Source: a virus
Strand: one strand, 5' to 3'
Virus record (IMG/VR): IMGVR_UViG_3300032224_001146
Location: 23,194-87,193 of that record
DNA length: 64,000 nucleotides
Both the position numbers and the translations under genes were made by a program. The notes under the pieces are model-generated. The model worked only from the letters and a program-made list of their open reading frames with translations, was not told the origin of the DNA and made no database searches. This document shows positions 1 to 61,808 of this stretch, piece after piece. How positions within the stretch are numbered: the first letter of the stretch is position 1; every line of letters starts with the position of its first letter.

Positions 1-588
1 ACATTGATTGTGTCTGGTACAGCAACACAATCCTTTGGTACATCTTCACAAGCTAGACCATTGGTATCAATTAGAATTGCCCCTTCAGTAGACAATGGTC
101 TTGGAAGAAATTATGGAATTCGTGAAATTGTTAACCACATGCAGCTTAACCTTTCATCAATTGGTATTTTGTCCTCTGGACAGTTCCTTGTACAAGGATT
201 TTTGAACCCAGCTTCAATGGCTGGTGTATCAATTCCAGGAGATTGGGAAACTACAAGAATTCCAGGTGGTTCTCTTGCACAAGTAATTTATCATGATGGT
301 TCTGGAGTTCCAGGAACAACAATTACTAACCCAACAAATACAATTACGGGAGGTGACCAGGTGTTTGCGTTCTATACTGAAAACTCTGGTGGTGATAACC
401 TTTCTGTTACAAACTTTGATCTTTCAAAAGTAAGAGATCTTGGAACATCAATTCTTTCTGGAAATGGAAATACTTCAGCTCCAGGATATCCAAATGGTCC
501 AGATATTCTTACAATCGTAGCAACAAACCTTGGTGCTACAACTGGTAACATTACAACACGTCTGTCTTGGACAGAAGCTCAAGCTTAA
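1..588 (+). CDS. Virion structural/tail-associated protein, 5'-truncated
   Basis: Open frame runs from the window edge to TAA at 588. G/T/S/N-rich beta-type composition. Lies at the head of the tail-appendage cluster. Confidence 0.5.
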   Translation, partial: TLIVSGTATQSFGTSSQARPLVSIRIAPSVDNGLGRNYGIREIVNHMQLNLSSIGILSSGQFLVQGFLNPASMAGVSIPGDWETTRIPGGSLAQVIYHDGSGVPGTTITNPTNTITGGDQVFAFYTENSGGDNLSVTNFDLSKVRDLGTSILSGNGNTSAPGYPNGPDILTIVATNLGATTGNITTRLSWTEAQA

Positions 589-600
589 TAGGGGGAATAG

Positions 601-1269
601 ATGCCAAGTTTCAGTACTTTATCTAATCAGATAACAGTATTTAAAAATAAGGTTGATGCATTAACAGCATCAGGTAGCCTTACAGCTAATGACCTACTCC
701 TTCTTGCAGAAGCACTAACTGTTATTGGAACAGCATTAGGTGTACAAGATATTGTAGCAGCAACAGCTGATGCAGTTACTCAAGTACAAGCAGCTGGAAC
801 ATCAACAATTGCAACAGTAAATGCAACTGCAAATGGAACTGCTGTATCAAATCTTCAATCTTCATATAATACATTACAATCATCTTATACAAATCTATCT
901 CCTCGTGTTACATCACTTGAAACAACAAGCACTTCTCAAGCATCAGCAATTGCCACAGCATCAGCATTGGCATCCCTCGGTGGATGGAATGCTTGGCAGC
1001 TTGTAACAGCAAATAAAACATTAGTAAATGCTGATAGAGTATTTGTGGTTCCAGCAGCTAACTTGGTAATTACACTTCCAGTAACTCCATCAATTGGACA
1101 AGCAGTAAGAATTGTTGATGCTGCAGGAACAGCAGGAACAACAAACTTTACAATTGCAAGAAATGGTTCTAATATTATGGGTGTAGGTCAAGATATGACT
1201 GTAAATACAAACTCTGCTAGACTACACTTGGTTTATGTTGATTCAACAAGAGGATGGAGATTAGTATAG
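601..1269 (+). CDS. Tail fibre-like protein (helical N-terminus plus C-terminal T4 fibre/baseplate-like beta domain)
   Basis: SD-like GGGGG upstream. C-terminal 'ITLPVTPSIGQAVRIVD..G..TTNFTIARNGSNIMG...LVYVDSTRGWRLV' matches a common phage fibre repeat. N-terminus is paralogous to 7054..7386. Confidence 0.6.
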   Translation: MPSFSTLSNQITVFKNKVDALTASGSLTANDLLLLAEALTVIGTALGVQDIVAATADAVTQVQAAGTSTIATVNATANGTAVSNLQSSYNTLQSSYTNLSPRVTSLETTSTSQASAIATASALASLGGWNAWQLVTANKTLVNADRVFVVPAANLVITLPVTPSIGQAVRIVDAAGTAGTTNFTIARNGSNIMGVGQDMTVNTNSARLHLVYVDSTRGWRLV

Positions 1270-1661
1270 TGGCACTTTATAGCGATGTTGTTAACTCAAC
1301 AATGAATTTTACTAATATCACCACAACAGGAGCCACAATCTCTGGATATAAAACAGGACGAATTGATCTGGGAACAACAAGCGGTACAGTAAACCTAGAT
1401 TTATCTCTTTCAAATGATTTTACATGTACACTAAATGGAAATACAACATTTAATATTACAAACACTCCATCAACTGGAGTTGTGGGATTTTCACTACAGC
1501 TTAATGGTGGAGGATCTTATACAGTAACATTTACAAATGCCAAGTATCCAGCAGCTACAGCACCAGCTTTAACTGCAGGTGGAATTGATGTTATTACATT
1601 TATTACATACGATAATGGAACTTCTTGGAGAGGCACAGTAGCGATGAAGGACTCAAGATAA
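1269..1661 (+). CDS. Tail fibre-associated beta-sandwich protein
   Basis: GTG start overlaps the previous stop (TAGTG). 'FNITNTP..G.VGFSLQLNGGGSYTVTF...APALT....D.ITFITYDNGTSW' is paralogous to 9066..9503. Confidence 0.55.
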   Translation: MALYSDVVNSTMNFTNITTTGATISGYKTGRIDLGTTSGTVNLDLSLSNDFTCTLNGNTTFNITNTPSTGVVGFSLQLNGGGSYTVTFTNAKYPAATAPALTAGGIDVITFITYDNGTSWRGTVAMKDSR

Positions 1662-2161
1662 TGTATGCACAAGTTATAGATGAAGAAATCGTTCAAGTTA
1701 TTGATGAGCAATCATTAAGAGAGTTATATCCATCAACACATTTTCCATCACCAATCCTTCAGTCACATCTAGAAGGTTTTGATGATTGGTATGTCGTTCA
1801 AGATGATCCAACAGTTCCAGAATTTGATAAGGCAACAAAAAAACTTTTGTTTACCCGTGAATGGAATGCGGGAGCAGTTGTTGGATCTTATAAAGTTTTA
1901 AATTTAACAAATGATGAAAAAAAAGCGGCACAAGATGCTCAATGGGTAACTGTTAAGTATAATAGAAATAACATGCTTAAAGCTACAGATTATCTTATGC
2001 TTACAGATGTTTATAAGAACTTTAATGCATCTGAAAAAACACAAATTGCAGATTTTAGACAAGCACTTAGAGATATTACAGAACAAGCAGATCCATTTAA
2101 TATTGAGTATCCAACATTAGGAATTTCATCGGTTACATTACCAGACTTATTGAGGTCTTAA
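1661..2161 (+). CDS. Phage tail fibre assembly chaperone
   Basis: TAATG coupling to the previous gene. C-terminal 'RNNMLKATDYLMLTD...FRQALRDITEQADPFNIEYP' is the typical tail-assembly-chaperone motif. Confidence 0.75.
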   Translation: MYAQVIDEEIVQVIDEQSLRELYPSTHFPSPILQSHLEGFDDWYVVQDDPTVPEFDKATKKLLFTREWNAGAVVGSYKVLNLTNDEKKAAQDAQWVTVKYNRNNMLKATDYLMLTDVYKNFNASEKTQIADFRQALRDITEQADPFNIEYPTLGISSVTLPDLLRS

Positions 2162-3079
2162 ATGCCATTTCCACCAAATAGATATATGGCTTCTCCTCAA
2201 GCAAAAACATTTTTGCTTAGAGAAATTATTACTACAGGCTATCTTTTATCTGGATATCAAAATTCAAGTGTATGGCGTAACGTAAATAGAATGCAACATT
2301 CTACAGATACATCAACAAATCTTGGAGATTTACTTCCTTCAGGTGGAGCTTATTGCGGTGGAATTTGTGGATCAACATATGCATACCTTTTAAGAACTAT
2401 GTCTTCTTTTTGTCCAACTAGCAATGGTGTTTCACAATTACAGATGGTTACAGAAACAGGATCTACAGGACCTACAATGCCATATACAGTTGCACAAACA
2501 GGACAAGGATGCCAGCAAGAAAAATTAAAGGCATGGGTTGTTCCAAATGGAAACAATGCCCTTATGCGTTTTGATTTTACAACTCAAGCATGGCTTTCAT
2601 CAGTTGGATTATCTTATGTTGGTTATGGCGGCGGAGGAAACTCTTCATTCTTTACAGAAACAAAGGGTTGGACATATGAAGATGGAAACGCTTCTATGAA
2701 AATGACATTTGCAACAGAGACTCAGTCTTCTGCATCTCCAGCTGGAGCACACGATCAACAGCATGGTCAATCTTCAAAGCTTACATATGTATATGCAGGT
2801 AATGAAGGATCATATAATGGTGGTTATAACCTTCGCAGATGGAATGTTACAACAGAAACAAATGCTGGAAATATTACAAAGCCTTGTGGAAATACTGGAG
2901 AAGAAAATTTTGATATGGGTCAAGATCATGGTTATATGATGGGCTCATATGATGGAGCACAGAACAATAGATCTTATAGATTAAATTACACCACAGATAG
3001 TGGTTTTGAGGGCGGAGCAACAATGCAGCCCAAGGGCGTAGGTGGCAGAAGTTCTGGCATCGCAGCGTGGAGAGCATAG
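2162..3079 (+). CDS. Kelch-like six-repeat beta-propeller protein, probable virion component
   Basis: Six ~45-aa repeats with a G[YW]..G start and [R/K]xxxxT[DE]T end (GYLLSGY..RMQHSTDT, KGWTYEDG..KMTFATET, HGYMMGSY..RLNYTTDS). Confidence 0.5.
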   Translation: MPFPPNRYMASPQAKTFLLREIITTGYLLSGYQNSSVWRNVNRMQHSTDTSTNLGDLLPSGGAYCGGICGSTYAYLLRTMSSFCPTSNGVSQLQMVTETGSTGPTMPYTVAQTGQGCQQEKLKAWVVPNGNNALMRFDFTTQAWLSSVGLSYVGYGGGGNSSFFTETKGWTYEDGNASMKMTFATETQSSASPAGAHDQQHGQSSKLTYVYAGNEGSYNGGYNLRRWNVTTETNAGNITKPCGNTGEENFDMGQDHGYMMGSYDGAQNNRSYRLNYTTDSGFEGGATMQPKGVGGRSSGIAAWRA

Positions 3080-3091
3080 ATAGGAAAATAA

Positions 3092-3826
3092 ATGCGTTAC
3101 ATCAATGACATTGAGTCTGATGTTTCCAATTATACAAAAGAACAAAAAGACATTCTTTTGTATTCCGTAAATAGAAACTGGGGAACCCCAGTATTTAAAA
3201 TGGATAATTTTATTGGAAATGCACAATACTCACCATTTGGTAAGCTAAGACAATTCATGCTGGAACTAAAAACCAGAGAAGATATGATCCTTAAAATGGA
3301 GCATGAAATTGAAAAAACAAAACTTCAAATTGAATTGATTGAAGAATATAAGCAACAGGTATCTTCTCCAGCACAATTAAAGCTACATGATTTGGATATT
3401 AAAGAAAAATATAGAGAGCTGGATAATGTTAAAAATATTTTAACTATGTCTTATGAAGAACGTGACAAGTTTATGATGCTTATTACCAGATTTAATGAAT
3501 CTGAAGAAGGTATGTTGCCAGATGGTAGAAGAGTCATTGATATTATTGGTAATTATGAAGAGGAAGAACGACTAGAAGCAGAACTTTGGATTACCCGCCT
3601 GGGACAACAAGCAGCAAATGATCTTTTATTCTATGGTCATGTTGGCGTTGGAAATATGGAAGCAATTGGCCAGTTGCCAGAAAAAGATCAGATGAAAGCA
3701 ATTGAATGTGCGGTAGAAAAAACAATTACTACTGGACATAAATTAGAAATTGCACATAAGGTTGTTTCAGAAAAATTAGCTTTAGAAGCTACAGATTCTT
3801 CAGACTGGGAAGAACTAGAAGTATAA
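3092..3826 (+). CDS. Hypothetical coiled-coil protein
   Basis: 244-aa ORF with SD (AGGA). E/K-rich heptad region. Confidence 0.6.
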   Translation: MRYINDIESDVSNYTKEQKDILLYSVNRNWGTPVFKMDNFIGNAQYSPFGKLRQFMLELKTREDMILKMEHEIEKTKLQIELIEEYKQQVSSPAQLKLHDLDIKEKYRELDNVKNILTMSYEERDKFMMLITRFNESEEGMLPDGRRVIDIIGNYEEEERLEAELWITRLGQQAANDLLFYGHVGVGNMEAIGQLPEKDQMKAIECAVEKTITTGHKLEIAHKVVSEKLALEATDSSDWEELEV

Positions 3827-4386
3827 TGATTTATATAATTTATGATATTGAAAGCATAGGAAATCATCAAGGTTATATTGAAGAAATTGGTGGTTACTTG
3901 GGTCTTAGATTTGGTAGGTTTGACGAATCGCTTTTGCCATATATAAAAATGATTGATTGCCTAGTTGTTCCAGAAAAAGTTGCAATGGCATATAAATTTG
4001 CGGGAAAACTAAAAGGAAGCATAAGCGTAAGAATAGGAACTACTCAGTACGATCAACTTGGAGAAGATGTCCTAGAAGTATATAAAGATAAATTTAAATA
4101 TTATTTTACAGAAGAAGACAAAGTAAATGCAGTACTTTGTGATAAAGCAGTTATGCATCACATGTTAAATAAATATTATTATAATAAAATATCTATATCT
4201 TTAACTACTCTTAAAATATTTAGAGATGAAAACTGGCAATCAGAACATGTTCTTATTGAAAAGAAAAAACAAATAATGGGGGAAATAGATGCTTGCCAAA
4301 CTATGGAAGATACGGTAAACTTATTACACAACCGTTTTGGCATCCAAAAAGATTATCTTTCTGGAGATTTTAAACTAGATTTGTAG
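3826..4386 (+). CDS. Hypothetical protein
   Basis: 186-aa ORF translationally coupled (TAATG) to the previous gene. Confidence 0.6.
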   Translation: MIYIIYDIESIGNHQGYIEEIGGYLGLRFGRFDESLLPYIKMIDCLVVPEKVAMAYKFAGKLKGSISVRIGTTQYDQLGEDVLEVYKDKFKYYFTEEDKVNAVLCDKAVMHHMLNKYYYNKISISLTTLKIFRDENWQSEHVLIEKKKQIMGEIDACQTMEDTVNLLHNRFGIQKDYLSGDFKLDL

Positions 4387-4390
4387 GATA

Positions 4391-6034
4391 ATGTTTAGCG
4401 TTCCTCTTAACCCAAAGTTAAAAGAAAATCAATTAAACGAATTTATAGTATTCTTAAAAGAATACAAATCGTTTATTTATGATTTTTATTTTACCTGCAG
4501 AGTTGAACCATTTACTCAAGATGCCATGGGAGATGTTTTTCAAGGCGGAAAAGAAGATCACGAGTACCTTGTCTCCCTTGCCCTTTATATTCAAAATGAA
4601 ACTGGAGTAACTGCTTCAGCAGTATTTAATAATATTGAGGTAAGACCATCGCAGCAGAACCTTGATTTATTTATAGAGTCTTTTAGGCCAGTATATGAAT
4701 CTGGAATTAGATCAGCAACAATTCCCCACACACACTGGATGGCAACAGGACAAATCAAAAAAGCTTTTCCAGAGTTATTTGTAAAAAATACTATCCTTCG
4801 AAATGTATCAGAACCAAGAGATATAGAAAAATTGGCAAAAGCTGGATTTGATTATATTAACCTTGACCGTGATCTTATGAGGGATCATGAAAAACTAAAA
4901 AGATTTAAAAAGGCTAAACAACAATTTGGAGTAAAGCTATCTTTGCTAGCAAATGAAAGTTGTTATGGCGGATGTATTATGATGGATGAACATTATCAGT
5001 TTAATAATACCCGCACAGATGGGCCTCAATATTTTAATGATCCAATAAGCCGTGTATCTTGCCCAAAATGGGACCATGAGGATTTTGCGGTATCATTGAA
5101 AACAGCTAATTTTCCGCCCTGGCGTGAAGATTGGCAGGAGTTTATTGATGACCTTGGGATTGATGTTATTAAAATGCATGGGAGGGAGTCCCATACAAGG
5201 CTTAAAGAAACTATGGATATAATCAGGAGGTATGCCAATAATGAAGAAATTCTATTTGACAGCTTTAATGATTTTATTGAAGAAACTAATATGGTTGATA
5301 AGCCGATTACCATCTGGCGTAATAAGATCAAGAATTGTAAATTTGATTGCTGGGATTGTGGCTATTGCGACAAAATAATGGCTGCTAAATATGGCAACCA
5401 TATTAATCCAAAAGTTGCTATGGTTGCACAAGAGTTGGTTAATTCTGTAAATGCACCAATTGAAATTAATATTCCTGGGTTAACATCAACTAGAGTTCAA
5501 TCTTTAATTAATGGATTAGCAAAAAATTCATCTAAATATTTAGAAATTGGTTCTTATCAAGGTGCTACAGCAGCTAGTGCTTTATTGGGAAATAATCTAT
5601 CAGCGTACTTTGTAGATACGTGGCAGGAAGCCCCACAAGCAGTTAGAGATGGTTGGGAGACACCAATCACTAATACACTAGAAGAATTTAAAAATAATAT
5701 TAAGCCTTACACGGGTAATAATAAAATATTTATATCTAACTCTGATATGTTTAAAGTTAATGTTTCTAAGATTTCAGACGTTGATCTTTTCTTTTATGAT
5801 GGCCCTCATGATTTTGAGTCCACAAAAAATGCGGTCAAGTATTACTCACCTTCATTTGCTAATCAATCTATTTTAATATTTGATGATGCAAATTGGACGG
5901 AAGTTGTGCAGGGTGCCCATAAGGGAATAGTTGAATCTGGATTAACAATATTGTATAGTAAGAAGATATTAAATAGCTTAGAATCCGACACCGACTGGTG
6001 GAATGGACTTTATATAGTAGTTGTGGAAAAGTAA
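4391..6034 (+). CDS. Peptidase-U32-family (Fe-S hydroxylase-like) domain fused to a class I SAM methyltransferase (Methyltransf_24-like)
   Basis: N-terminal part: 'GFDYINLDRDLMRD', 'LLANESCYGGC', 'IDVIKMHGRE' (cf. U32 K-x-x-G-R), 'CKFDCWDCGYC'. C-terminal part: 'YLEIGSYQGATA' (motif I), 'VDTW', 'DLFFYDGPHD', 'IFDD'. Confidence 0.7.
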   Translation: MFSVPLNPKLKENQLNEFIVFLKEYKSFIYDFYFTCRVEPFTQDAMGDVFQGGKEDHEYLVSLALYIQNETGVTASAVFNNIEVRPSQQNLDLFIESFRPVYESGIRSATIPHTHWMATGQIKKAFPELFVKNTILRNVSEPRDIEKLAKAGFDYINLDRDLMRDHEKLKRFKKAKQQFGVKLSLLANESCYGGCIMMDEHYQFNNTRTDGPQYFNDPISRVSCPKWDHEDFAVSLKTANFPPWREDWQEFIDDLGIDVIKMHGRESHTRLKETMDIIRRYANNEEILFDSFNDFIEETNMVDKPITIWRNKIKNCKFDCWDCGYCDKIMAAKYGNHINPKVAMVAQELVNSVNAPIEINIPGLTSTRVQSLINGLAKNSSKYLEIGSYQGATAASALLGNNLSAYFVDTWQEAPQAVRDGWETPITNTLEEFKNNIKPYTGNNKIFISNSDMFKVNVSKISDVDLFFYDGPHDFESTKNAVKYYSPSFANQSILIFDDANWTEVVQGAHKGIVESGLTILYSKKILNSLESDTDWWNGLYIVVVEK

Positions 6035-6035
6035 T

Positions 6036-6950
6036 ATGCCAAGTTTATCTATTTTATTTCAAGAATGGTACTACATTCTTATGTTGGGAACCGTGCTGGT
6101 TCTTTCATATTATGCTAAAAAATATGATGTGTTTCAACCTTTGTATTTATCAATTTCAAGAATATTTAAATCTAAAAGAGCGGTCATTGCAATAACTTCA
6201 GCAATTGCTGGGGTACTTCCAATTAATGGTCGTGTAGTTATTTCAGCGGGAGTTTTAAATACTGTAGCACCGCAAGATAAAGAAAAACGCAAGAAATATG
6301 CCGTAATTGATTATTTGGCTACTCATCATTTTTATTTTTGGTCCCCATTAGAGCAAACGGTAATTATTCCAATGGCTGCACTTCATATTAGTTATTGGAC
6401 ATTCCTAGGACGTACCTGGGCTATTTTGGCTACAGCAATTACATGTGCCCTTTGGTATATTTTTGGAGTACTTAAAGAAGAAGACGTTGAAATAAATTTT
6501 AGGTCAGAACGCAAAAAGCACAATATGGATCCAGCAAAAGAATTTAGAAGCGGATTAAAAACAATGTTGTTTGTCACAGGCCTATTAATGATGGGTAATT
6601 TTGTTGGATATCATCATGAGGCATTTCAACGTATGTTTGATAATGCTCAAAAAACTAGCTTGCTTATAGTGGTTTTAATAGCCTCATTTGCCATCAGTTG
6701 GCTTTTGGGAAGTAGCGAAAAGTTTTCAGGACTTATTGGAATATCTTCAGCAGCATTTGGCCTTCAATATCTTCCAATTCTTTTTGCAGTAAATTGGGCT
6801 GGATACTTTTTGTCCCCAATGCACAAATGTATGCTTCTGGGAAGACAGATTTTTGGGGCCTCATTCAAAGATTACTACAGGGTCTTGGTGGGAGTCGTAT
6901 CAATGGTTATTTTGGTGGGTATAGTCCATACATATACTACAGGGCTTTAG
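6036..6950 (+). CDS. Polytopic membrane protein, DUF401/ion-transporter-superfamily-like
   Basis: Roughly 8-9 hydrophobic segments. 'HHFYFWSPL' and 'GYFLSPMHKC' resemble the DUF401 'RH..EY.WPL' and 'G..LSP.H.C' motifs. Confidence 0.55.
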   Translation: MPSLSILFQEWYYILMLGTVLVLSYYAKKYDVFQPLYLSISRIFKSKRAVIAITSAIAGVLPINGRVVISAGVLNTVAPQDKEKRKKYAVIDYLATHHFYFWSPLEQTVIIPMAALHISYWTFLGRTWAILATAITCALWYIFGVLKEEDVEINFRSERKKHNMDPAKEFRSGLKTMLFVTGLLMMGNFVGYHHEAFQRMFDNAQKTSLLIVVLIASFAISWLLGSSEKFSGLIGISSAAFGLQYLPILFAVNWAGYFLSPMHKCMLLGRQIFGASFKDYYRVLVGVVSMVILVGIVHTYTTGL

Positions 6951-7025
6951 TAGGCTTCTTAAGACTTACTAAGGTATAATAAGAAGTATTGTAGGCTGGC
7001 GGGAACCTAAACAATAATTGGATTA

Positions 7026-7034
7026 TGCTATAAT
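7026..7034 (+). promoter_or_regulatory. Extended -10 promoter (TGCTATAAT)
   Basis: TGnTATAAT motif followed by SD AGGAG and ATG at 7054. The same motif recurs at other operon starts. Confidence 0.6.
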
Positions 7035-7053
7035 TTAGTACAGGAGAAATATT

Positions 7054-7386
7054 ATGCCAAGTTATGACAGTTTATCAAGTCAAATCACTACCTTCAAGAC
7101 TAAGGTAGATGCTCTTAGCAGCAGCACCCTCTCTGCTCAAGACCTAGTGTTTCTTGCAAAAGCAATTGAAGCAATGGGAAATCTTTTAGGGGTAAATGAT
7201 ATTGTAGCTGCTACTTCATCTAGCATCAATTCAATTCAATCTTCTGGATCAGGTCAGGTAACTTCAGTGCAAACAGCTGGTGCAACACAAATTGCAGCAG
7301 TAAATACAGCTGGAACACAGAACATTGCTAGCCTTGCATCACAGATCAGCAACTACACTTTATACACAAATATGGGAGTAATTTAA
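7054..7386 (+). CDS. Virion appendage protein, paralog of the 601..1269 N-terminus
   Basis: MPSYDSLSSQITTFKTKVDAL...LGVNDIVAAT versus MPSFSTLSNQITVFKNKVDAL...LGVQDIVAAT. Confidence 0.6.
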   Translation: MPSYDSLSSQITTFKTKVDALSSSTLSAQDLVFLAKAIEAMGNLLGVNDIVAATSSSINSIQSSGSGQVTSVQTAGATQIAAVNTAGTQNIASLASQISNYTLYTNMGVI

Positions 7387-7387
7387 T

Positions 7388-7705
7388 ATGGCAACAGTAA
7401 GCTTACCAGCACGTTTTGCTGCAGGAACAGCAACAACATCAGAAACAACAATTCTAACAGTTCCTGGCGGAGAGACAGATGTAGTTACTTCTGTTACCTT
7501 CGATAATATCACAGACGCAGCCAACCAAGTAACATTGAAGATGGCTGGAATTAACTTCTGCAAAAATCTTGATCTCGCACCAAGATCTTTGACAGTTCTA
7601 GACTTTAAGCAAGTATTAAATACAGCAGAGACAATTACAGTTACAGCATCAGTTAACTCTGGTGTTACATACTTTATCTCTGGCGTAAAGATCACAAACG
7701 TATAA
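7388..7705 (+). CDS. Small beta-rich virion protein, paralog of 11655..12017
   Basis: Shared pattern 'LP.RF....T.TT......T....LT..D..QV....ETI...A.V..G....SGV.I.N'. Confidence 0.55.
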   Translation: MATVSLPARFAAGTATTSETTILTVPGGETDVVTSVTFDNITDAANQVTLKMAGINFCKNLDLAPRSLTVLDFKQVLNTAETITVTASVNSGVTYFISGVKITNV

Positions 7706-7729
7706 TTAGAAATTAGAGGAGTTTAAACA

Positions 7730-8707
7730 ATGGCTGTAGCAAATTCAACTACACAAATTTTAGTGCCAGGTCTTGATAAATCAGTTCAAGATAACTTAAA
7801 TGCAGCATTAAATTCAAATACAACACTTGCTGGTGTACTTGCAGCAGCAGGAAACATTGCAATTAAAGTAGTCAAGCCTGTTACAGTCAAATTAGATTCT
7901 ACTCAATATTGGACACGACCAGCAAATACAGTTTCGGCTATTGATGCTATTGTTGTTGGTGCTGGAGGTTCTGGCGGTTGTGGACACTCATCACATTATT
8001 CTGGCGGTGGCGGAGGTGGCGGTCAGGTAATTAGAAGAAATTTAGATATTTCTTCTGTTGCAGTAGGACAATCAATCCTTGTTACAATTGGTTCAGGAGG
8101 AGCTGCAGTTTCTGGTTCAAGTAATACAAATGGTAACAATGGTGGAAATACAACATTAACTTATGGTGCAACAACTATTACTGCTTACGGCGGTGGCGGT
8201 GGCGGAGCTTACGGTAACCATGCACCACAATCACCAGGTGGATCAACTGGCGGTGGAGGTTCAAGAACTCACCACGGTGCAGGCGGTGGCGGTGGCGGAG
8301 CTGGCGGTGCAGGCGGACAAGGCTGGGGACAAAATCAAGAACACTCTTGGAGAATGAGAGCAGGACATGCTTCACATACTCCTGCAACAGATGAAGGTTC
8401 ATCAATGGGTGGAATGGGAATGGGTGGAGATTCATCTGGTTCACAATCTACAACTGGTGGACAAGGTGGAAGAGGACTTTACGGACTTGGCGGAGGTGGC
8501 GGTGGCGGAGGCCGTCATGCAATGGGTGGAGGTTCTAACGGTGGTGGAGCAGGTGGAGCAGGAAATGGTTCTCCTTATGGTTCAGCAGGACAACCTGGAA
8601 TTGATGGTTCAGGTGGCGGAGGCGGAGGTGCTACAGATGGTAGCACTGGAGGTAAGGGCGGCAATGGAACTGTCGTTCTAACATATTGGTTAAAGGAGAG
8701 TGCATAA
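7730..8707 (+). CDS. Glycine-rich (polyglycine II) adhesin/fibre-like protein
   Basis: 'WTRPAN...VVGAGGSGG', multiple GGGGGG runs, C-terminal 'GGKGGNGTVVLTY'. Paralog of 9517..10509. Confidence 0.65.
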   Translation: MAVANSTTQILVPGLDKSVQDNLNAALNSNTTLAGVLAAAGNIAIKVVKPVTVKLDSTQYWTRPANTVSAIDAIVVGAGGSGGCGHSSHYSGGGGGGGQVIRRNLDISSVAVGQSILVTIGSGGAAVSGSSNTNGNNGGNTTLTYGATTITAYGGGGGGAYGNHAPQSPGGSTGGGGSRTHHGAGGGGGGAGGAGGQGWGQNQEHSWRMRAGHASHTPATDEGSSMGGMGMGGDSSGSQSTTGGQGGRGLYGLGGGGGGGGRHAMGGGSNGGGAGGAGNGSPYGSAGQPGIDGSGGGGGGATDGSTGGKGGNGTVVLTYWLKESA

Positions 8708-9066
8708 TGTCGTACAGATCATTGGCTTTGGTTAATTCGGATAACATTGTTGAAAATGTATTGGTAATGCCTAGCGATGAAGCAGAATATAATGAATTGC
8801 TTCCTAAGTTAGAAAAAGATTTAGCACCACTTAAATTAATTGAGTGCACAGATTGGGAAGACCCAACTGGATTGCATTCACATGTTGGAGTTGGCTTTAC
8901 ATGGGATGGATCAAAGTTTATTGGTATTCCAAAAGGTGTAGACACAATTACAGAAGAAGATTTAAAAAGAGCAGAAGAAATGCTTAAGAGAGATCAAGAG
9001 CTAGCTGCAGAAAGACTTGCACAAGGGTTAGATGCACCAGCAGTTGCACCAGGAGGAACAAACTAA
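8707..9066 (+). CDS. Small protein following the Gly-rich fibre, probable chaperone
   Basis: TAATG coupling. 'ALVNSDNIVENVLV...VGVGFTWDGSKFI' pattern is typical of genes downstream of Gly-rich fibres. Confidence 0.5.
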   Translation: MSYRSLALVNSDNIVENVLVMPSDEAEYNELLPKLEKDLAPLKLIECTDWEDPTGLHSHVGVGFTWDGSKFIGIPKGVDTITEEDLKRAEEMLKRDQELAAERLAQGLDAPAVAPGGTN

Positions 9067-12032: not shown

Positions 12033-14321
12033 ATGGCTTACAAACAGTATGGAAATGTTCTTAATACCTTAAATATTAAACAAAAAAATATATTTAACTG
12101 GAATTTAAATTATTATGATAAATATGGAAGAATTAATTTTAACTCACAAAGCTCTCACACATATATTACAAGATCTTTATCTGTAGCAACTTCATCTGGA
12201 ACTTTGCAGGGATATCTTCCATCCATAAAAAATATTGATTATAATACAGCATCCACAATTTTAAGAAATTCTGGTTTTACACCTTCGCCAACATATATTT
12301 ATACAAACAATACTGCATTTCAAACATATAATGCATTAGGTGGTTATGTTACGACACAGTCACCAGCACCTTCAGCATCTTCTGGACAACTTGTGCAATT
12401 TGGTAGTTCCATTCAAATGGATGTAATTTTATACACATCTGTTCCAATTGTAACTACAACTGTTCCAAATGCTCCATTATGGTCTAACGCAACATCTGGA
12501 GATTCTTCAGTCACTCTAACATTTGTGGCACCAGCAAACGGTGGTTCAGCTATAACTAGATATGAATATTCAATTACAAATGGTGCTACATGGATTTCTG
12601 TAGGATTGCCAACAAATAGTACATTTACTGTTTCAGGACTTGTAAATAATGTTGCATATACTTTTTATATTAGAGCAGTAAACTCAATTGGCAATTCAGC
12701 ATCAAGTGCTGGTGTAACTAAATCTCCAACTGCAGGTTCTATTGGTGGAACTGTAACAACTCCAGGTGCTCCTACATTTACAACATCATTCGTTACAAAT
12801 ACATCATTTAGAATCACACTCACAGCTCCATCAAATAATGGTGGTGCTGAAATTACAAGATATCAACATTCATTAGATAACGGTTTGACATGGACAAATG
12901 ATTTTACAAATACTGGACCAATTACAGTTTCTGCACTTAACCCAGGACAAACATATCAAGTTTCTTTACGTGCAGTAAACTCAGCTGGTAGTGGTGCGGC
13001 AGCAGCAACACAATCCTTGACTACAACACAAATCGTTCCAGATCTAGTAGGACTTGCACTTAATACAGCAAAAACAGTTATTACGTCTTCTGGATATGTT
13101 TTTGGAACTGGAACAGAAAGTGCATCTAATAACCAATATTATTTAGATTATTCTGGTGGACTTGTAAGTGCACAATCTCCAACAGCAGGAGGGTCTTTAT
13201 CTGGTGGAGGAACCATTAGACTTGACTACACAGTTTATTTGGCTGCACCTTCATATGGAACAATTCCAAATGTAATTGGACTTAATTATTCTGAAGCTAT
13301 TACAAGAATTCAGCAAGCAGGTTATTCAAATATTACACAAGTTACAACATCTGATATTAACAAAACTTATGGGCAAATTTATGCACAAAACCCAGCAGCA
13401 GGAACAGCATCATTGGTTAACCAGGTAGTTACAATAACCTATTCAAACTATACTGGATCATTAGCCATTCCAACAAATACAGTTGCTCCAAGTGTTACTG
13501 GAGATAATCTATATGTTGGAGCTAAATTTAATGTTGTTCCAGGAACTTGGACAGATAGTCCAACATCATATAATTATCAATGGGTTGATTCAAATGGAAA
13601 CAATTTTATCAATGCTACGTCATCAAGTTACATCGCTAATTCAACTGCAATTTCTAGATCAATTGGAATAAAGTTAGCAGCAACAAATGCAGCTGGTACA
13701 TCTTCGTATGTAACTTCTTCAAACTTTTTAGGACCAATTAAAATTCTTCAAAAGCCAACAGATATTCAGTACGCAGCAACAAACCCAAGATCAGCTACAT
13801 CAATATCAGTTACTTGGTCTGGAGGAGATTCTCCATTTTACTTTGTTGGTATATATAAACCAGGGACATCATCTTACGTATCAACCAAAATTGTAACAAC
13901 TCAATCAACAACATTTACTGGTTTAACTGCAGCAAATAATTATTATATTCAGATATTTGGAAACAATAATAATGAATATACAGCTGATTCATATACAAGT
14001 GCAGTTTTATCAACAACATTTTCTGCACAGCCTTTTATTCCAGTTTTAAATACAGCAGCTAAATCTGGAAATAATATTAATTTTACTGCAACTCGTGGAG
14101 CAAATAATGCAAAAGTTAGAGTTCAATTAGAAAATACAGGCGGCGGATTAGTTGCTGGTACAACCTACCAAGATTTTGGTTTAGATTTAACACAATCATC
14201 AATATCAAGTTCATTTAATATTAATGGTATTTCTTCTGGATCTTATAAGATAGTTGCATATGGATACAATGAAGATTATGGAATATCTGCATCTGGCTCT
14301 TCCTTGGATATTACGATATAA
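12033..14321 (+). CDS. Multidomain PASTA + fibronectin type III / Ig-like virion protein
   Basis: FN3 repeats 'PNAP.......GDSSVTLTF.AP.NGGSAITRYEYS...YTFYIRAVNSIG'. PASTA-like 'VPDLVGLALNTAKTVITSSGY...VSAQSPTAG' and 'IPNVIGLNYSEAITRIQQAGY...IYAQNPAAG'. Confidence 0.7.
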   Translation: MAYKQYGNVLNTLNIKQKNIFNWNLNYYDKYGRINFNSQSSHTYITRSLSVATSSGTLQGYLPSIKNIDYNTASTILRNSGFTPSPTYIYTNNTAFQTYNALGGYVTTQSPAPSASSGQLVQFGSSIQMDVILYTSVPIVTTTVPNAPLWSNATSGDSSVTLTFVAPANGGSAITRYEYSITNGATWISVGLPTNSTFTVSGLVNNVAYTFYIRAVNSIGNSASSAGVTKSPTAGSIGGTVTTPGAPTFTTSFVTNTSFRITLTAPSNNGGAEITRYQHSLDNGLTWTNDFTNTGPITVSALNPGQTYQVSLRAVNSAGSGAAAATQSLTTTQIVPDLVGLALNTAKTVITSSGYVFGTGTESASNNQYYLDYSGGLVSAQSPTAGGSLSGGGTIRLDYTVYLAAPSYGTIPNVIGLNYSEAITRIQQAGYSNITQVTTSDINKTYGQIYAQNPAAGTASLVNQVVTITYSNYTGSLAIPTNTVAPSVTGDNLYVGAKFNVVPGTWTDSPTSYNYQWVDSNGNNFINATSSSYIANSTAISRSIGIKLAATNAAGTSSYVTSSNFLGPIKILQKPTDIQYAATNPRSATSISVTWSGGDSPFYFVGIYKPGTSSYVSTKIVTTQSTTFTGLTAANNYYIQIFGNNNNEYTADSYTSAVLSTTFSAQPFIPVLNTAAKSGNNINFTATRGANNAKVRVQLENTGGGLVAGTTYQDFGLDLTQSSISSSFNINGISSGSYKIVAYGYNEDYGISASGSSLDITI

Positions 14322-25277: not shown

Positions 25278-28200
25278 ATGACAGAAAACATTAATACTCA
25301 GATCACCGCTAGTGCTGACTTCTCAAGTTTGATTGGTCAGATACATCAAGCGGTATCTCAACTTACATTATTACAGCAAAAGATTGGTGCATCCAATGTT
25401 GCTCTGAGTCAACAGATCGCTGCTAGTAATAATGCTTTTGCAAATACGCTTAAAAATAGCAATCAATTCAGCACACACTTTGTAACTCTCGCAAGTGATA
25501 CTGAAAAGTTTGGAAAAGCTTTAGATAGCGGAAAATTAAAACTTAGAGATTACTACAACTCTTGGCAGCAATATCATCGCCAAGGTGCTAGCTTAATTAA
25601 AGATTTAGCTAAGCAGCAAGCAGCCATGCAAAATGCAATCATTCAACCAATGGGCAGAAATGGCCAAGGGCAAATGCAATTCAATGTTCACGTTCCAACG
25701 GGAATTGACGAGCTTGCAAATAAAACAAGAATTGCAAAACAAGAAATGTCTATCCTTAATAAGGTTATGTCTGACGGGGCCACACAATTAATTAACTGGG
25801 GTAAGAATACTCAGTGGGCAGGCCGCCAATTAACAGTAGGTTTAACAGTTCCAATGGCAGCATTTGGACAAGCTGCCGCACAATCATTTTTGCAGGTTGA
25901 TGCAGAACTTGTAAGACTTACAAAGGTTTATGGCGGACTTGCACAAACTTCACAAGCAGAACTTGGAAAAGTAAGATCTGACACAATTAAAACAGCTAAA
26001 GAACTTTCTGGTGCTTATGGAGTAAACTTTAAAGAGACTATTGCTCTAGCTGCAGATATTGCCGCAACTGGTAAGCAAGGCAATGAGCTTATGGGTTCAT
26101 TAAAAGAAACAACAAGACTTTCTGTACTTGGTGAAGTAAGCAGACAAGATGCAATGAAAGCCACACTCGCTATTCAAAATGCATTCAAGCAAAATACAAC
26201 AGAGCTTGGTCAATCAATTGATTTCCTTAACGCAGTTGAAAACCAAACTTCAACAACGCTACAAGATCTTGTAAATGCAATTCCTAAAGCTGGACCAGTT
26301 GTAAAAGGTCTAGGCGGAGATGTAAAAGATCTTGCATTGATGATGGTTGCAATGAAAGAAGGAGGAGTTGATGCTGCTTCTGCTGCAAATGGATTAAAGT
26401 CAGCACTTGGTTCTTTAATTAATCCAACAAAAAATGCAAAAACTTTATTTAGAGGTTTTGGAATTGACCTTCAAGGTATTGTAAATAATAATGCTGGACA
26501 TGTAACAGAAACAATTTTAGCATTGCAAAATGCATTAGATAAACTAAATCCATTACAAAAACAACAAGCATTAGAAACTTTGTTTGGTAAATATCAGTTT
26601 GCAAGAATGGGTGCGTTATTTGATAATCTTGGTAAAAAAGGCTCTCAGACATTACAGGTATTAGATTTAATGAAAGCAAGCACACAGGAGCTTGCAGGTG
26701 TAGCTAGTCGAGAATTAGCACAGCAAACAGAATCAGCTTCTGGTAAATACAAGAGAGCACTTGAATCTTTAAAAGCAGATCTAGCAACAGTTGGATCAGG
26801 ATTTCTTGGAGTTTCTGCAAATCTTCTTAAAATTGCTGATGGAATTTTAAAAGCATTTAATGCACTTCCTGGCCCAGTAAAGAAATTTGTAACACTGTTG
26901 GCTGGACTTACAGCAGTAGCAGGACCAATCATTATGCTTACTGGTGTATTCTCAAACTTCCTTGGCTATGTGATGAAAGGTTTTGCTGGTATCAGAGCAT
27001 TCTTTAGTCATGCAGATAAATTTAAATTATTAACTCCAGAAATTGTTGCTGCAGATGAAGCAGCAATGATTATGGAAAAAACATTCTATTCAGATGCTGA
27101 AGCAGCAATGGTATTAAAAAATGCTTTAACAGCACTTAAACTTGAGATGCGTCAAATTGCTGAAATGGCATCATCAAATACAATTACAGCAAAACCGCTT
27201 GTTCAAAATATTAGTAATGCTACACATGGCGGAACAGTTCCAATTAATGGCTTAGACTTTGCTCATTATAATCCACAAGCAAGGTTATCTGAAGAAGATA
27301 GACTTAAGCAAACATTCCATACATCAATACCATTAGATCCAACAACTAATAAAAAAATTGGTGAAAATCCACAAATGATGGTTATGCCAGGAACTGGAAT
27401 TCCAAAAGTTCAAGGACTTACCATGATTAATGGTGCAACAACTGGAGTAAATGCGGTTGAAGCAGCAAAGTGGAATACAATGATGACAACTATGGCTATG
27501 AGAACAAAAACTCAAATGGCTGAGGTAGAGAGAGTACTTGATACAACTGGTCAATTGCCAGCAGAATTTATGGCTGATTTTAATTTAATTTTACCTAAGA
27601 TGCAAAATATTGCAGCTACAGCTGCACAATCTTCTGCTCGTGTTGCACGTTCTGCAGAAGCTGGAATTTTAACAGTTGAAGAATCACAAAGAGCATTGCA
27701 GGCAATTAACGCAAAGATGATTGAAAGAATGAATGCACTTTCAATTGCATCTGGTGTTCCAATTGAAAGAATGACAATGGTTCCAGGAACAAACACACAG
27801 GTTGCTACTGGAACAGCAGCAATGAAAAATCAAGATTACAACATGAGAAGTGTTACAAGAACTGGTGCTGGAAGAGTTGGCGGACTTACATCTAAGATTT
27901 CAAATGCACTTAAGGTAGGCGTAAGAAGAATTAAGCTACAAGATGGAGCAGTTGGTATTGGTGGTATTCAAAAATATGCAGGTGGAGTTATTGGTGCAGG
28001 ACTTACATTAGGTCTTAAAGCAGCAAGAGCATTAAGTTTAGTTGGAGCAAGAGCAGGACAAAAAGCTTATAAATTTAAATCAGCATTTGGTGTATTTGGA
28101 AAAACACTTCCAGGCCAAACTGCAGACTCAATTAACTTGCTTCTTAGAACTGGAAAAATGCCAGTTGGAGATTATGTAAGATCATTAATGTTAGCAGGAA

Positions 28201-55517: not shown

Positions 55518-56306
55518 ATGGCTAAAGGCATTGTAAATAATTTAAAGTTTAGAAAGTATGCAGGAAAGTTTGACGCAGAACTTTTTGGACAAAGGCTTGA
55601 TGATGCCTACCTATCAACAAAACGTGCAGACGGAGAAATGACAAAATATTCATTTAGTCCAAGCACAATTGGTTATGGTCATGGAAATTGTCCTAGATAT
55701 TGGTACATGGCATTTAGTGGTGCAACTTTTATTGATGATAACAAAGCACAATCTGTTGCTAATATGGCACAAGGAACTCAAGCTCATGAACGCTTGCAGA
55801 AGCTTATTGCAACTATGCCAGAGTTTGTTGAAGAAGAACGTGAGATACGAAATGATTATCCTCCAATTAGAGGTTTTATTGACCTTGTCATGAATTATGA
55901 TGGTGAGACTGTCATTGGTGAAATTAAAACAGCTAAGCAAGAAGTCTGGGATACAAGACAAGCAGAAATGAAATCTTCTGCAAACCATATGCTTCAACTT
56001 CTTACATACATGAAACTTACTGGTGCCAAAGAAGGTTTCTTTCTTTATGAAAATAAAAACACTCAAGAGCTTTTAACTATTCCAATTCAAATGAATGATC
56101 GAAATCAAAAAATAATTGATGATACATTTGCATGGTTGTGTAAAGTTTGGGATAATTTTAAAGAAGGAGACCTTCCAGTAAGACCAGATGGGGCTGTTAA
56201 AACAAAATCCCCATGCACGTATTGCCCAATTAAAAAGGAATGCTGGTCTAAGACTGCCGATGAGGGTAGTATTGAAATAGAAATGTTTAAGGTTCCGCAA
56301 ATATGA
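55518..56306 (+). CDS. Cas4-like PD-(D/E)xK exonuclease
   Basis: 'CPR..Y', 'G...H', 'GFID', 'EIKT', 'QL..Y', C-terminal 'C.YC.....C' Fe-S ligands. Confidence 0.85.
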   Translation: MAKGIVNNLKFRKYAGKFDAELFGQRLDDAYLSTKRADGEMTKYSFSPSTIGYGHGNCPRYWYMAFSGATFIDDNKAQSVANMAQGTQAHERLQKLIATMPEFVEEEREIRNDYPPIRGFIDLVMNYDGETVIGEIKTAKQEVWDTRQAEMKSSANHMLQLLTYMKLTGAKEGFFLYENKNTQELLTIPIQMNDRNQKIIDDTFAWLCKVWDNFKEGDLPVRPDGAVKTKSPCTYCPIKKECWSKTADEGSIEIEMFKVPQI

Positions 56307-60763: not shown

Positions 60764-60837
60764 GTGGCAATAGCCAAGTTGGTCAAGGCTCCGAACTCAT
60801 AATTCGGTTATCGTAGGTTCAAATCCTACTTGCCGCA
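60764..60837 (+). tRNA. tRNA with CAT anticodon (elongator Met or Ile2)
   Basis: Acceptor GTGGCAA/TTGCCGC, D arm GCC..GGC, anticodon arm CCGAA-CTCATAA-TTCGG, T arm GTAGG-TTCAAAT-CCTAC. No encoded CCA. Confidence 0.9.
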
Positions 60838-60848
60838 CAAGGAGAAAG

Positions 60849-61731: not shown

Positions 61732-61804
61732 GCCTTCGTAGCTCAGGGGATAGAGCGAGACTCTTCTAAGGTCTGCGTCGCAGGTTCGATTCCTGCCGAG
61801 GGCA
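61732..61804 (+). tRNA. tRNA-Arg (TCT)
   Basis: Acceptor GCCTTCG/CGAGGGC, D arm GCTC..GAGC, anticodon arm AGACT-CTTCTAA-GGTCT, T arm GCAGG-TTCGATT-CCTGC. No encoded CCA. Confidence 0.93.
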
Positions 61805-61808
61805 CAAA

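Follow-up and report, generated by a model that had tools for sequence, protein, structure and literature searches.

We analyzed a 64,000-nucleotide stretch of DNA from a virus (positions 23,194 to 87,193 of IMG/VR record IMGVR_UViG_3300032224_001146; hereafter, the window), and in particular a single open reading frame (ORF) at 4391..6034 (+ strand, ATG start) that encodes a fusion protein of 547 amino acids, P0001. Based on profile comparisons and on the predicted structure, the N-terminal domain of P0001 is a distant member of the U32 superfamily that lies outside the family as it is currently modeled. The C-terminal half is, by its predicted fold and its Pfam match, a Methyltransf_24-type S-adenosylmethionine (SAM) domain that resembles the cation-dependent O-methyltransferases. 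The gene belongs to a conserved five-gene module, which comprises phrog_1417, phrog_1409, a phrog_1604-like gene, the fusion, and a DUF401-like membrane protein. Our best explanation overall, which we hold tentatively, is that P0001 is a two-domain enzyme that would combine U32-type hydroxylation with subsequent O-methylation of a protein or peptide substrate, within this module. The enzyme class is known. New here are the module, the bacterial gene contexts, and, within the class, a divergent branch with its own arrangement of cysteines and its fusion in a single chain. A full-text search of the literature outside subscription journals found no description of this U32-like family, the fusion, the module, or the bacterial contexts.

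U32 enzymes are iron-sulfur (Fe-S) proteins that are required for the O2-independent hydroxylation of U34 in tRNA, of C2501 in rRNA, and of ubiquinone precursors (PMC6747719, PMC10990095, PMC6599085; these papers are cited from excerpts throughout). In the hydroxylation of ubiquinone, prephenate is the oxygen donor, and a mechanism via oxidation of an aromatic ring has been proposed (PMC10990095). In Bacillus subtilis, the yrrM-yrrN-yrrO operon joins U32 genes to the gene for TrmR, which is similar to catechol O-methyltransferases, and has a role in the formation of 5-methoxyuridine (mo5U) (PMC6599085). A preliminary description of the window, made from its sequence alone, had compared the fusion to this TrhP1/TrhP2 and TrmR system, and the excerpt bears out both the operon and the role in mo5U formation.

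The fusion protein and its recurrence

All of the motifs that were quoted in the preliminary description are present in the translation of P0001. The N-terminal part contains NESCYGGC (C191 and C195), VSC (C224), KMHGRE (K261 to R265), and CKFDCWDCGYC (C316, C320, C323, and C326), and the methyltransferase half contains EIGSYQG (E385, G387, and G391), DGPHD (D470), and IFDD (D498 and D499).

The fusion recurs widely. Using tblastn, P0001 matched 126 of 50,697 phage records, all at under 60% identity. At least 80% of the protein was covered in 121 of the 126. By the first word of the organism name, the 126 records include 77 "Synechococcus," 38 "Cyanophage," 8 "Prochlorococcus," and 3 "Ralstonia." Megablast with the fusion gene found no match among the phage records. 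In a large protein collection, 1887 of 8000 candidates scored were homologs of P0001 at E ≤ 1e-3, some 91% identical, and at least 524 stretches of viral contigs encode a relative. The two domains are linked elsewhere not only in the 121 cyanophage records but also in viral contigs, where a methyltransferase lies directly 3' of the N-terminal domain in all 77 loci with enough downstream DNA. (These and later counts of viral loci are for the best 80 of the at least 524 relatives, at 59-93% identity, and so are biased toward close relatives from one or a few lineages.) Because the fusion recurs across hundreds of independent contigs, we rejected the idea that it originated as an assembly artifact.

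Existing annotations say little about the protein. It matches phrog_1458 across residues 46-547 (E = 1.1e-166), whose function is given as unknown, and phrog_36869 across residues 2-332; no NCBIfam model matches it. The GenBank records of cyanophages label the fusion gene "hypothetical protein," and some homologs are named "predicted O-methyltransferase YrrM" by JGI.

Our main family alignment contains 92 sequences, down to 21% identity, of which 23 are fusion proteins. Given this alignment, AlphaFold predicted the structure of P0001 with a predicted local distance difference test score (pLDDT) of 92.6 and a predicted template modeling score (pTM) of 0.77. From the single sequence, the prediction was unusable (pLDDT of 35). 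One of the 92 members, which is probably P0127, carries DUF7483 (E = 1.3e-51), and the C-terminal half of P0127 does not align with the methyltransferase. Among the relatives of the N-terminal domain, P0132 has an N-terminal extension of 234 amino acids, and a protein at locus L014 (4586-6544) has an N-terminal extension of 300 amino acids, with a CxxCx5C stretch and no match in Pfam.

The C-terminal domain (residues ~355-547; 5453..6031, + strand) is identified as a class I SAM methyltransferase by both Pfam and structural matches. As the preliminary description had proposed, it is of the Methyltransf_24 type: PF13578 matches residues 384-499 with 42 bits, versus a cutoff of 26.3 (E = 1.9e-10). 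The same model is present in 20 of the 92 alignment members. The closest folds to this half in the Protein Data Bank (PDB) are 5x7f (Z = 16.8), 8c9v (16.0), 4oa5 (15.8), MeT1 (6g7d; 15.8), and 3tr6 (15.7); TrmR (5zw3, 15.1, and 8k1f, 13.9), SpnH (4cdz, 15.0), and CCoAOMT (5kva) were also matched. Ten entries other than TrmR have Z between 15.1 and 16.8, at least six of them being named O-methyltransferases, and differences of less than 1 Z are ties. As modeled, then, the fold does not discriminate: it neither singles out TrmR nor identifies the methyl acceptor. The matched O-methyltransferases act on catechols, sugars, or RNA.

Nine residues of this domain (E385, G387, G391, D409, D470, D498, D499, N501, and K524) are each conserved in 21 or more of the 23 fusions. 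We take E385-x-G387-x-x-x-G391 to be the glycine-rich motif that binds SAM and D409 to be the acidic residue that binds ribose. D470, D498, D499, and N501 may correspond to the metal ligands of cation-dependent O-methyltransferases. Overall, the predicted domain shares its fold with the cation-dependent class I O-methyltransferases (Z of 15-16.8) along with the glycine-rich SAM motif and D409, and putatively the Asp...Asp-Asp-x-Asn set; it differs from them in that it is fused to a putative Fe-S barrel.

Relation to the U32 superfamily

The N-terminal domain (residues 1-345; 4391..5425, + strand) appears to be a divergent (beta/alpha)8 barrel of the U32 superfamily followed by a helical tail, as judged from the model, from profiles, and from clusters of similar proteins. 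The preliminary description had expected this domain to model as a U32-type TIM barrel, and it does. Of 48,161 PDB chains, the one most similar to the P0001 model is the U32 protein Mk0906 of Methanopyrus kandleri (5d88_A), with Z = 16.9, a root mean square deviation (rmsd) of 3.0, and 222 of 247 residues aligned. This match spans residues 1-271 of the model, at 9-10% identity. The next TIM barrel is MTHFR (Z = 13.4, rmsd of 5.1). Foldseek placed 5d88 at rank 3, with a TM score of 0.71 (normalized to the target). Although Mk0906 is the best structural match, the P0001 domain runs about 75 residues further, and this additional part carries an invariant motif of four cysteines.

To compare profiles, we used a U32 profile of 11 sequences, namely the four paralogs from Escherichia coli and seven proteins from the loci of other genomes. 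We drew on genome loci because the homologs of the E. coli paralogs, among the matches listed, were nearly all near-identical UbiU-type proteins. Aligning the family to this profile with hhalign gave a probability of 79.3% and a score of 47.6, versus 0.1% and 15.3 for the reversed profile and 0.9% and 21.9 for the best of 20 column shuffles. With the four E. coli sequences alone, the probability was 36%. The confident core of the hhalign alignment includes only residues 58-177 of P0001, and in absolute terms, the signal of sequence homology is weak. The family's hidden Markov model gives TrhP 22.5 bits, and in the six-frame translation of the chromosome of E. coli K-12, the family profile has just one match at E ≤ 1, which is inside trhP (E = 9.2e-4, 19.1 bits). 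Finally, the clusters in the ESM Atlas that are nearest to the N-terminal domain are either named "Peptidase U32 (Fragment)" (score of 0.94) or are ones in which 20% of the members carry PF01136.

Several results weigh against placing this domain in the U32 superfamily. PF01136 did not match P0001, even at E ≤ 1, nor did it match anything in the six frames of the whole 87-kb virus record (the control matched in 8 of 14 genomes). It matched one of the 92 relatives, with E = 0.033. PF01136 also found 11 places with canonical U32 proteins in five bacterial genomes where the family occurs, but never the U32-like gene. When the PDB sequences were searched with the family's profile, there was no significant match. 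By these standard tests, membership in U32 is weak. Furthermore, E162, C170, and C177 are essential in TrhP (PMC6599085), and these residues have no clear counterparts in the phage family, as the segment falls in a gap of the hhalign alignment. More generally, no Pfam family was found at E ≤ 1e-3 on the N-terminal domain of any of 44 representatives, and neither phmmer nor profile searches of the PDB sequences, with P0001 and with alignment A1, gave anything significant (the top hit was a de novo designed TIM barrel, with E = 0.011).

The cysteines are also arranged differently. Most U32 subfamilies have the motif CX6CX15CX3/4C, and its four cysteines bind a 4Fe-4S cluster; UbiV deviates from this motif, and two of ten aligned U32 families are without it (PMC6747719). 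The family of P0001 does not match it either: its layout is C191-x3-C195-x28-C224, between strands 7 and 8, plus C316-x3-C320-x2-C323-x2-C326. Both the number and the spacing of the cysteines differ from the canonical motif, while the location between strands 7 and 8 is shared. It is also a difficulty that hhalign sets C191 and C195 on the second pair of U32 cysteines with a posterior probability of only 0.2-0.5; the order of strands in the model instead suggests that they correspond to the first pair.

As the preliminary description had anticipated, the cysteines are conserved among the homologs, with each of the seven being present in at least 91 of the 92 sequences. The cysteines of the barrel (C191, C195, and C224) lie after the seventh strand (4961..5062, + strand), close to E189, E200, and H201, and are presumed to form the first Fe-S site. 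Each of the three is in 91 of 92 sequences, and E189, E200, and H201 are in 89, 86, and 90, respectively. The cysteines of the C-terminal motif CX3CX2CX2C (C316, C320, C323, and C326; 5336..5368, + strand), which would form a second site for an Fe-S cluster or a metal, are invariant: they are in 92 of 92 sequences, even at 21% identity. This motif sits about 50 residues past the barrel, and canonical U32 proteins do not have it.

UbiU and UbiV each bind one 4Fe-4S cluster via four cysteines, which in UbiU are C169, C176, C193, and C232 (PMC6747719). The seven cysteines of P0001 probably bind two Fe-S clusters in one chain, which would match the UbiU-UbiV unit, with its one 4Fe-4S cluster per subunit and two in total (PMC6747719).

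The other conserved block is K261-x-x-G264-R265 on the eighth strand (5171..5185, + strand), which we take to correspond to the K-I-E-G-R block found in canonical U32 proteins. K261 and R265 are found in 91 of the 92 sequences and G264 in 90, and hhalign aligns D258-V-x-K261-x-x-G264-R265 with the K-I-E-G-R of UbiU, TrhP, and RlhA at high posterior probability. (The use of K-I-E-G-R as a criterion for U32 is our own reading of the alignment of the E. coli proteins, not a published criterion.) D159, R160, and R164 are nearly invariant in the family as well. The label "U32-like" from the preliminary description stands in part: the fold, the hhalign comparison, and the match in trhP speak for it, but PF01136 does not match and the CX6CX15CX3/4C spacing is not present.

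The phage module and the bacterial relatives

The module runs from 2162 to 6950 in the window, with gaps of 13 and 4 nucleotides and overlaps of 1 and 14 nucleotides; the overlap of 14 nucleotides is between the genes for the fusion and the membrane protein. A scan of positions 1-8000 of the window found promoters at or below the shuffled expectation and no terminator that bounds the module.

The first gene (2162..3079, + strand) encodes a protein of 305 amino acids that is rich in Gly, Ser, Thr, Asn, and Tyr and belongs to phrog_1417 (E = 7.9e-48). In some cyanophage records, its homolog is named "sericin 1 precursor-like protein." It was present in all 72 of the related viral loci that have at least 3 kb of upstream DNA, and tblastn found it in 123 phage records, all of cyanophages. 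It is a possible substrate or structural partner of the fusion.

The second gene (3092..3826, + strand) encodes a helical or coiled-coil protein of 244 amino acids (phrog_1409, E = 3.2e-33). This is the most constant neighbor of the U32-like gene (73 of the 73 viral loci with enough upstream DNA), and its homologs were also found in 123 phage records by tblastn. A homolog is immediately 5' of the U32-like gene in cyanophage S-CAM4, in viral contig L006, and in Ralstonia phage RP31, and two genes upstream of it in a Leptospirales bacterium (L024). The ESM Atlas has just weak look-alikes for phrog_1409, which are generic helical hairpins with scores of 0.78 or less. The predicted complex of the fusion with phrog_1409 scored 0.41, versus 0.00 for the best control. 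Of 80 solved complexes, 58 reach the mark for such predictions, versus 2 of 110 mismatched pairs, and scores of 0.60 or less came from only 7 of the 80 solved complexes and from both of the mismatched pairs that passed. Across runs, at least 54% of the contacts agreed and the partner's pLDDT was at least 73. The modeling gives weak support to a complex of these two proteins.

The third gene (3826..4386, + strand) encodes 186 amino acids and has no direct match in PHROG or Pfam. We identified it as a short and divergent relative of phrog_1604 through five bridging viral loci, in which its product and the phrog_1604 protein of S-CAM4 match the same ORF in the same frame. A gene of the phrog_1604 type is also present in S-CAM4, L006, and L024. 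Searches of the PDB sequences with the proteins of phrog_1417, phrog_1409, and phrog_1604 gave no matches.

The fifth gene (6021..6950, + strand), downstream of the fusion, encodes a polytopic membrane protein of 309 amino acids with 5-6 hydrophobic segments. It belongs to phrog_14035 (E = 4.2e-70) and is similar to DUF401 (Pfam, E = 3e-12), of the ion-transporter type. Homologs with E = 3.6e-44 and 2.9e-51 are immediately 3' of the U32-like gene in RP31 and the Leptospirales locus, respectively. Among the 72 viral loci with enough downstream DNA, 58 have this gene and 14 lack it, and none was detected near the fusion gene of S-CAM4 by tblastn.

The module varies somewhat in its order and content. 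In S-CAM4 and L006, the order is phrog_1417, phrog_1604, phrog_1409, and the fusion. The jumbo phage RP31 has phrog_1409 followed by a U32-like gene that stands alone and then by phrog_14035. In the Leptospirales, on a contig of 6.4 Mb, the order is phrog_1409, a phrog_1604-like gene, the U32-like gene, and phrog_14035. The tallies of organisms and hosts are near-identical for the phage records (out of 50,697) that match phrog_1417 (123), phrog_1409 (123), and the fusion (126), as compared by tally and not by accession. In the records for S-RIM14 and S-ShM2, phrog_1417 and phrog_1409 are at ~32.9-35.5 kb and the fusion is at ~41.4-43.1 kb, so that about 6 kb of other genes splits the module.

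We considered a T4-like context for the phage in the window and rejected it: this phage has a tape measure protein of 2040 amino acids (25278-31400) and no T4-type genes. Elsewhere, this module is known from cyanophages that are T4-like; it has therefore moved between phage lineages.

Near the module, the window encodes tail-fiber-like and virion-structural proteins (phrog_5838, phrog_9017, phrog_8716/Phage_tail_APC, Gly_rich_2, and tail-fiber-assembly-like proteins). The preliminary description had placed the enzyme in a locus for tail appendages; these neighbors agree with that, but the enzyme is part of a five-gene module rather than on its own. In cyanophage-type contigs, genes for DUF6445 and for 2-oxoglutarate-Fe(II) oxygenases follow on the 3' side of the module (L001 8703-9413, L001 10357-11001, and L006 8943-9587), so several candidate protein-modifying oxygenases cluster in the module's structural region.

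The replication genes of the window are at 46-57 kb, far from the module. The region from 16472 to 64000 also encodes a portal, a protease, a DnaB-like helicase, a primase, a polymerase of 1092 amino acids, a UvsX-like recombinase, a Cas4-type exonuclease (55518-56306), and Hsp20 (62981-63409), as well as tRNA-Met(CAT) (60764-60838) and tRNA-Arg(TCT) (61732-61805). In the tail region, a protein of 762 amino acids (12033-14321, + strand) has three PASTA domains (E = 1.8e-22) in addition to fibronectin type III domains. PASTA domains typically occur in the penicillin-binding proteins and Ser/Thr kinases of bacteria and are unusual in a phage tail protein; here, they may indicate binding to peptidoglycan.

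We also scanned bacteria, using one genome per species, and found relatives at 21 loci, mostly in metagenome-assembled genomes (MAGs). One of these (L026) is only a fragment of 32 residues. The loci are from Campylobacterota, Syntrophaceae/Smithella, Leptospirales, Victivallales, Bacillota, and Cloacimonadota, and their U32-like genes are stand-alone and encode about 330-370 amino acids.

Many of these genes are near genes for maturation or secretion. Three loci (L007, L008, and L013) have tandem pairs of U32-like genes that are flanked by radical SAM or radical SAM/SPASM enzymes; L013 also has DUF6445, which adjoins the fusion in S-CAM4 as well (after it). Tandem duplication is seen in a fourth locus, L018. 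In L009 and L011, the U32-like gene is with a TolC-like protein, an ATP-binding cassette (ABC) exporter with a C39 peptidase, and HlyD, and in L015, a C39-ABC exporter, HlyD, and a two-component system are with the U32-like gene. Radical SAM/SPASM enzymes and C39 exporters are typical of clusters for the maturation of ribosomal peptides. Taken at the level of gene content, these contexts suggest an unrecognized class of tailoring enzyme in peptide-maturation clusters.

In the Syntrophaceae (L020, L022, and L023), the U32-like gene is found with a large protein of 1253-1381 amino acids, an ATP-grasp protein, and GNAT-like and TauE-like genes. The large protein of L020, which is the one of the three that was scanned, contains GLUG (Pfam). 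L020 and L023 also have a sulfotransferase-like gene and genes for sulfate activation, and L018 has the same downstream genes as this group. In the Leptospirales, a protein of 1523 amino acids with LamG/DUF2341 is encoded upstream of the U32-like gene. L016 and L017 have APH-like kinases and a SecA-like gene, along with a tryptophan halogenase in L017, and L019 has a short APH-like ORF.

A further context is from a Hydrogenimonas MAG (L012 2261-9062), where a type III-A csm operon on the same strand lies immediately upstream of the U32-like gene (7995-9062). The operon encodes Cas6, Cas10, Csm2, and RAMP proteins, and this is a single instance. The U32-like gene there may be an accessory gene of the operon, or its placement may be due to chance.

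Two loci from Campylobacterota have small frames that overlap the start of the U32-like gene (L009 1-163 and L011 94-327) and end with the same ten residues. Their last 53 codons show 9 synonymous and 16 nonsynonymous differences, and 37 residues there are the same in both frames; the adjacent U32-like proteins are about 79% identical. The small frame might encode a precursor peptide, or it might be the last part of a gene that lies upstream.

Activity and substrate

In the two-domain enzyme that we infer, with its Fe-S binding, hydroxylase chemistry, order of steps, and class of substrate, the N-terminal domain would hydroxylate an electron-rich and probably aromatic carbon without O2, using prephenate-type chemistry as in characterized U32 enzymes. 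The fused C-terminal domain would then O-methylate the hydroxyl group just made. By analogy with known pairs of enzymes, such coupling of hydroxylation and O-methylation is plausible. The most likely substrate would be a protein or peptide, for instance a protein of the virion surface or the Ser/Gly/Tyr-rich product of phrog_1417 in the module itself, rather than a tRNA. The enzyme would act within a five-gene module that moves between unrelated phage lineages and always lies among genes for virion fibers.

We consider a protein or peptide to be a more likely substrate than tRNA because the bacterial relatives are in clusters that look like peptide-maturation clusters and because large surface proteins adjoin the gene in both cells (the proteins with GLUG and with LamG/DUF2341) and phages (fiber-like proteins). 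The preliminary description had left the choice between tRNA or rRNA and the neighboring virion proteins; the bacterial clusters favor protein, and the gene context offers no pointer to tRNA or rRNA. The isoelectric points do not discriminate, as both the fusion (5.3) and TrhP (5.8) are acidic.

Some observations count against this proposal. The bacterial support for a protein or peptide substrate is thin, as it comes from few and heterogeneous loci, one of them after a csm operon and several beside genes for APH-like kinases. The bacterial loci yielded no confidently identified precursor peptide. The module's membrane protein could equally point to a lipid or a small molecule as the substrate. 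And according to the excerpt of PMC10990095, no U32 enzyme has so far been shown to hydroxylate its substrate in vitro.

Two known systems are the closest precedents. The first is TrhP1/TrhP2 with TrmR in B. subtilis (yrrO/yrrN/yrrM), along with TrhP in E. coli (YegQ): there, too, a U32-type enzyme is followed by a methyltransferase that resembles catechol O-methyltransferases, but they are encoded in an operon (PMC6599085) and not in one polypeptide. The fold of TrmR matches that of the C-terminal domain (Z = 15.1), and the tandem U32-like pairs of L007, L008, L013, and L018 recall both TrhP1/TrhP2 and UbiU/UbiV. However, P0001 lacks a match to PF01136, has a different cysteine pattern, and has the extra CX3CX2CX2C, and the family's genes lie among virion genes or in clusters for secretion or maturation instead of in a translation context.

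The second precedent is UbiU/UbiV, which with UbiT are O2-independent hydroxylases for ubiquinone and have a U32-type barrel in common with P0001. In the ubiquinone pathway, hydroxylation is followed by O-methylation, and the phage module likewise has a membrane-associated partner. In contrast to P0001, UbiU and UbiV form a heterodimer, their cysteine spacing is different, and UbiT has no equivalent here, in that no SCP2-type partner was detected for the fusion.

We weighed four other explanations. First, the fusion might tailor a small molecule or a lipid, by hydroxylating and O-methylating an aromatic compound that is membrane-soluble or imported, with the DUF401-like protein as its transporter or anchor. 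The compound might be a quinone-like lipid or a secondary metabolite. UbiU and UbiV do hydroxylate a prenylated aromatic lipid (PMC6747719, PMC10990095). The gene of the DUF401/CitMHS ion-transporter type overlaps the fusion gene and follows the U32-like gene in RP31, in the Leptospirales, and in 58 of 72 viral loci. Also, the APH-like kinases and tryptophan halogenase of Campylobacterota and the sulfation genes of Syntrophaceae are typical of natural-product tailoring. However, the membrane protein was not detected beside the gene in S-CAM4 and is missing from 14 of 72 viral loci, and the module includes no gene for a prenyltransferase, for polyketide synthesis, or for the shikimate pathway. 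Its constant partners, phrog_1409 and phrog_1417, are not enzyme-like, and it is placed among virion genes. We therefore consider this explanation to be unlikely.

Second, it is distinctly unlikely that the fusion modifies RNA, with the N-terminal domain hydroxylating C5 of a pyrimidine in tRNA (at U34) or in rRNA and the fused domain converting it to a 5-methoxy base. This could alter decoding, or it could protect tRNAs from the host's nucleases during infection. The window's two tRNAs could be seen as supporting this idea, but neither tRNA-Met(CAT) nor tRNA-Arg(TCT) is known to be among the four-codon-box tRNAs that carry 5-oxyuridine derivatives (xo5U), and we count this against it. Two of the three characterized U32 systems do act on RNA, and in B. 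subtilis trmR is in an operon with trhP1 and trhP2 (PMC6599085). The structures of TrmR are among the matches to the methyltransferase domain (5zw3 and 8k1f, at Z = 15.1 and 13.9), some homologs are named after YrrM, and trhP is the sole gene in E. coli that the family profile found. Still, TrmR is not the top match, since other O-methyltransferases have Z of 16.8-15.7, and Methyltransf_3 was matched in just 1 of the 92 members, with E = 0.051. TrhP and YrrO have a characteristic C-terminal motif (PMC6599085), but Pfam showed no counterpart to it on P0001, and no Pfam family, whether RNA-binding or other, was found on the N-terminal part of P0001 or of the 44 representatives. Finally, the constant partners of the fusion are a membrane protein, a Ser/Gly-rich protein, and a coiled-coil protein, and its bacterial relatives are in secretion or maturation clusters instead of beside genes for translation.

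Third, P0001 might not be a hydroxylase at all. Instead, CX3CX2C(X2C) might bind a site-differentiated cluster that carries out radical-SAM-like or other Fe-S chemistry on the U32-type barrel, and the methyltransferase would target a different atom. The spacing CX3CX2C is the signature of radical SAM enzymes. In the family, CX3CX2C (C316 to C323) is invariant (92 of 92), and the total of seven cysteines would suit one fully ligated cluster and another with three cysteines. The canonical cysteine motif of U32 is not retained, and in the excerpt of PMC10990095, U32 chemistry is described as not yet reconstituted in vitro. But the motif is after the barrel rather than after strand 1, and the Pfam model for radical SAM (PF04055) did not match P0001 or any of the 92 members. 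Furthermore, most members lack a SAM-binding domain (Methyltransf_24 is in 20 of 92). No radical SAM structure was among the fold matches listed, although this is a weak test because the listed matches are mostly methyltransferases. Overall, this alternative seems improbable.

Fourth, phages often modify their DNA. It is nevertheless most improbable that the fusion hydroxylates and methylates pyrimidines in phage DNA or its precursors to evade restriction: U32 enzymes are linked to the hydroxylation of pyrimidine C5 (PMC6599085), phrog_2675 ("DNA methyltransferase") weakly matches the methyltransferase domain (E = 4.9e-11), and RP31 has a dCTP deaminase gene about 4 kb downstream, but the module lies among structural genes and far from replication genes in the window, S-CAM4, and L006, has no nucleotide-metabolism gene as a constant neighbor, and has its bacterial relatives in secretion or maturation clusters.

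Returning to a protein or peptide substrate, the most specific form of our proposal is that a single-chain U32 enzyme with two clusters, together with its O-methyltransferase, would put first a hydroxy group and then a methoxy group on virion surface proteins, and that the bacterial relatives would act likewise on secreted peptides similar to ribosomally synthesized and post-translationally modified peptides (RiPPs). This specific form is doubtful.

U32 is a large and poorly understood family whose Fe-S-dependent hydroxylation with prephenate has been recognized only recently (PMC10990095). With a natural fusion to the enzyme that presumably catalyzes the next step, both activities could be studied in one polypeptide, and identifying the substrate would annotate an entire recurrent phage module of uncharacterized genes. 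If our specific proposal is true, a U32 enzyme would for the first time have been shown to act on a protein, and O2-independent hydroxylation of the prephenate type would reach beyond RNA and quinones into post-translational modification. A function would also be assigned to a module that more than 120 cultured cyanophages and hundreds of marine viral contigs carry.

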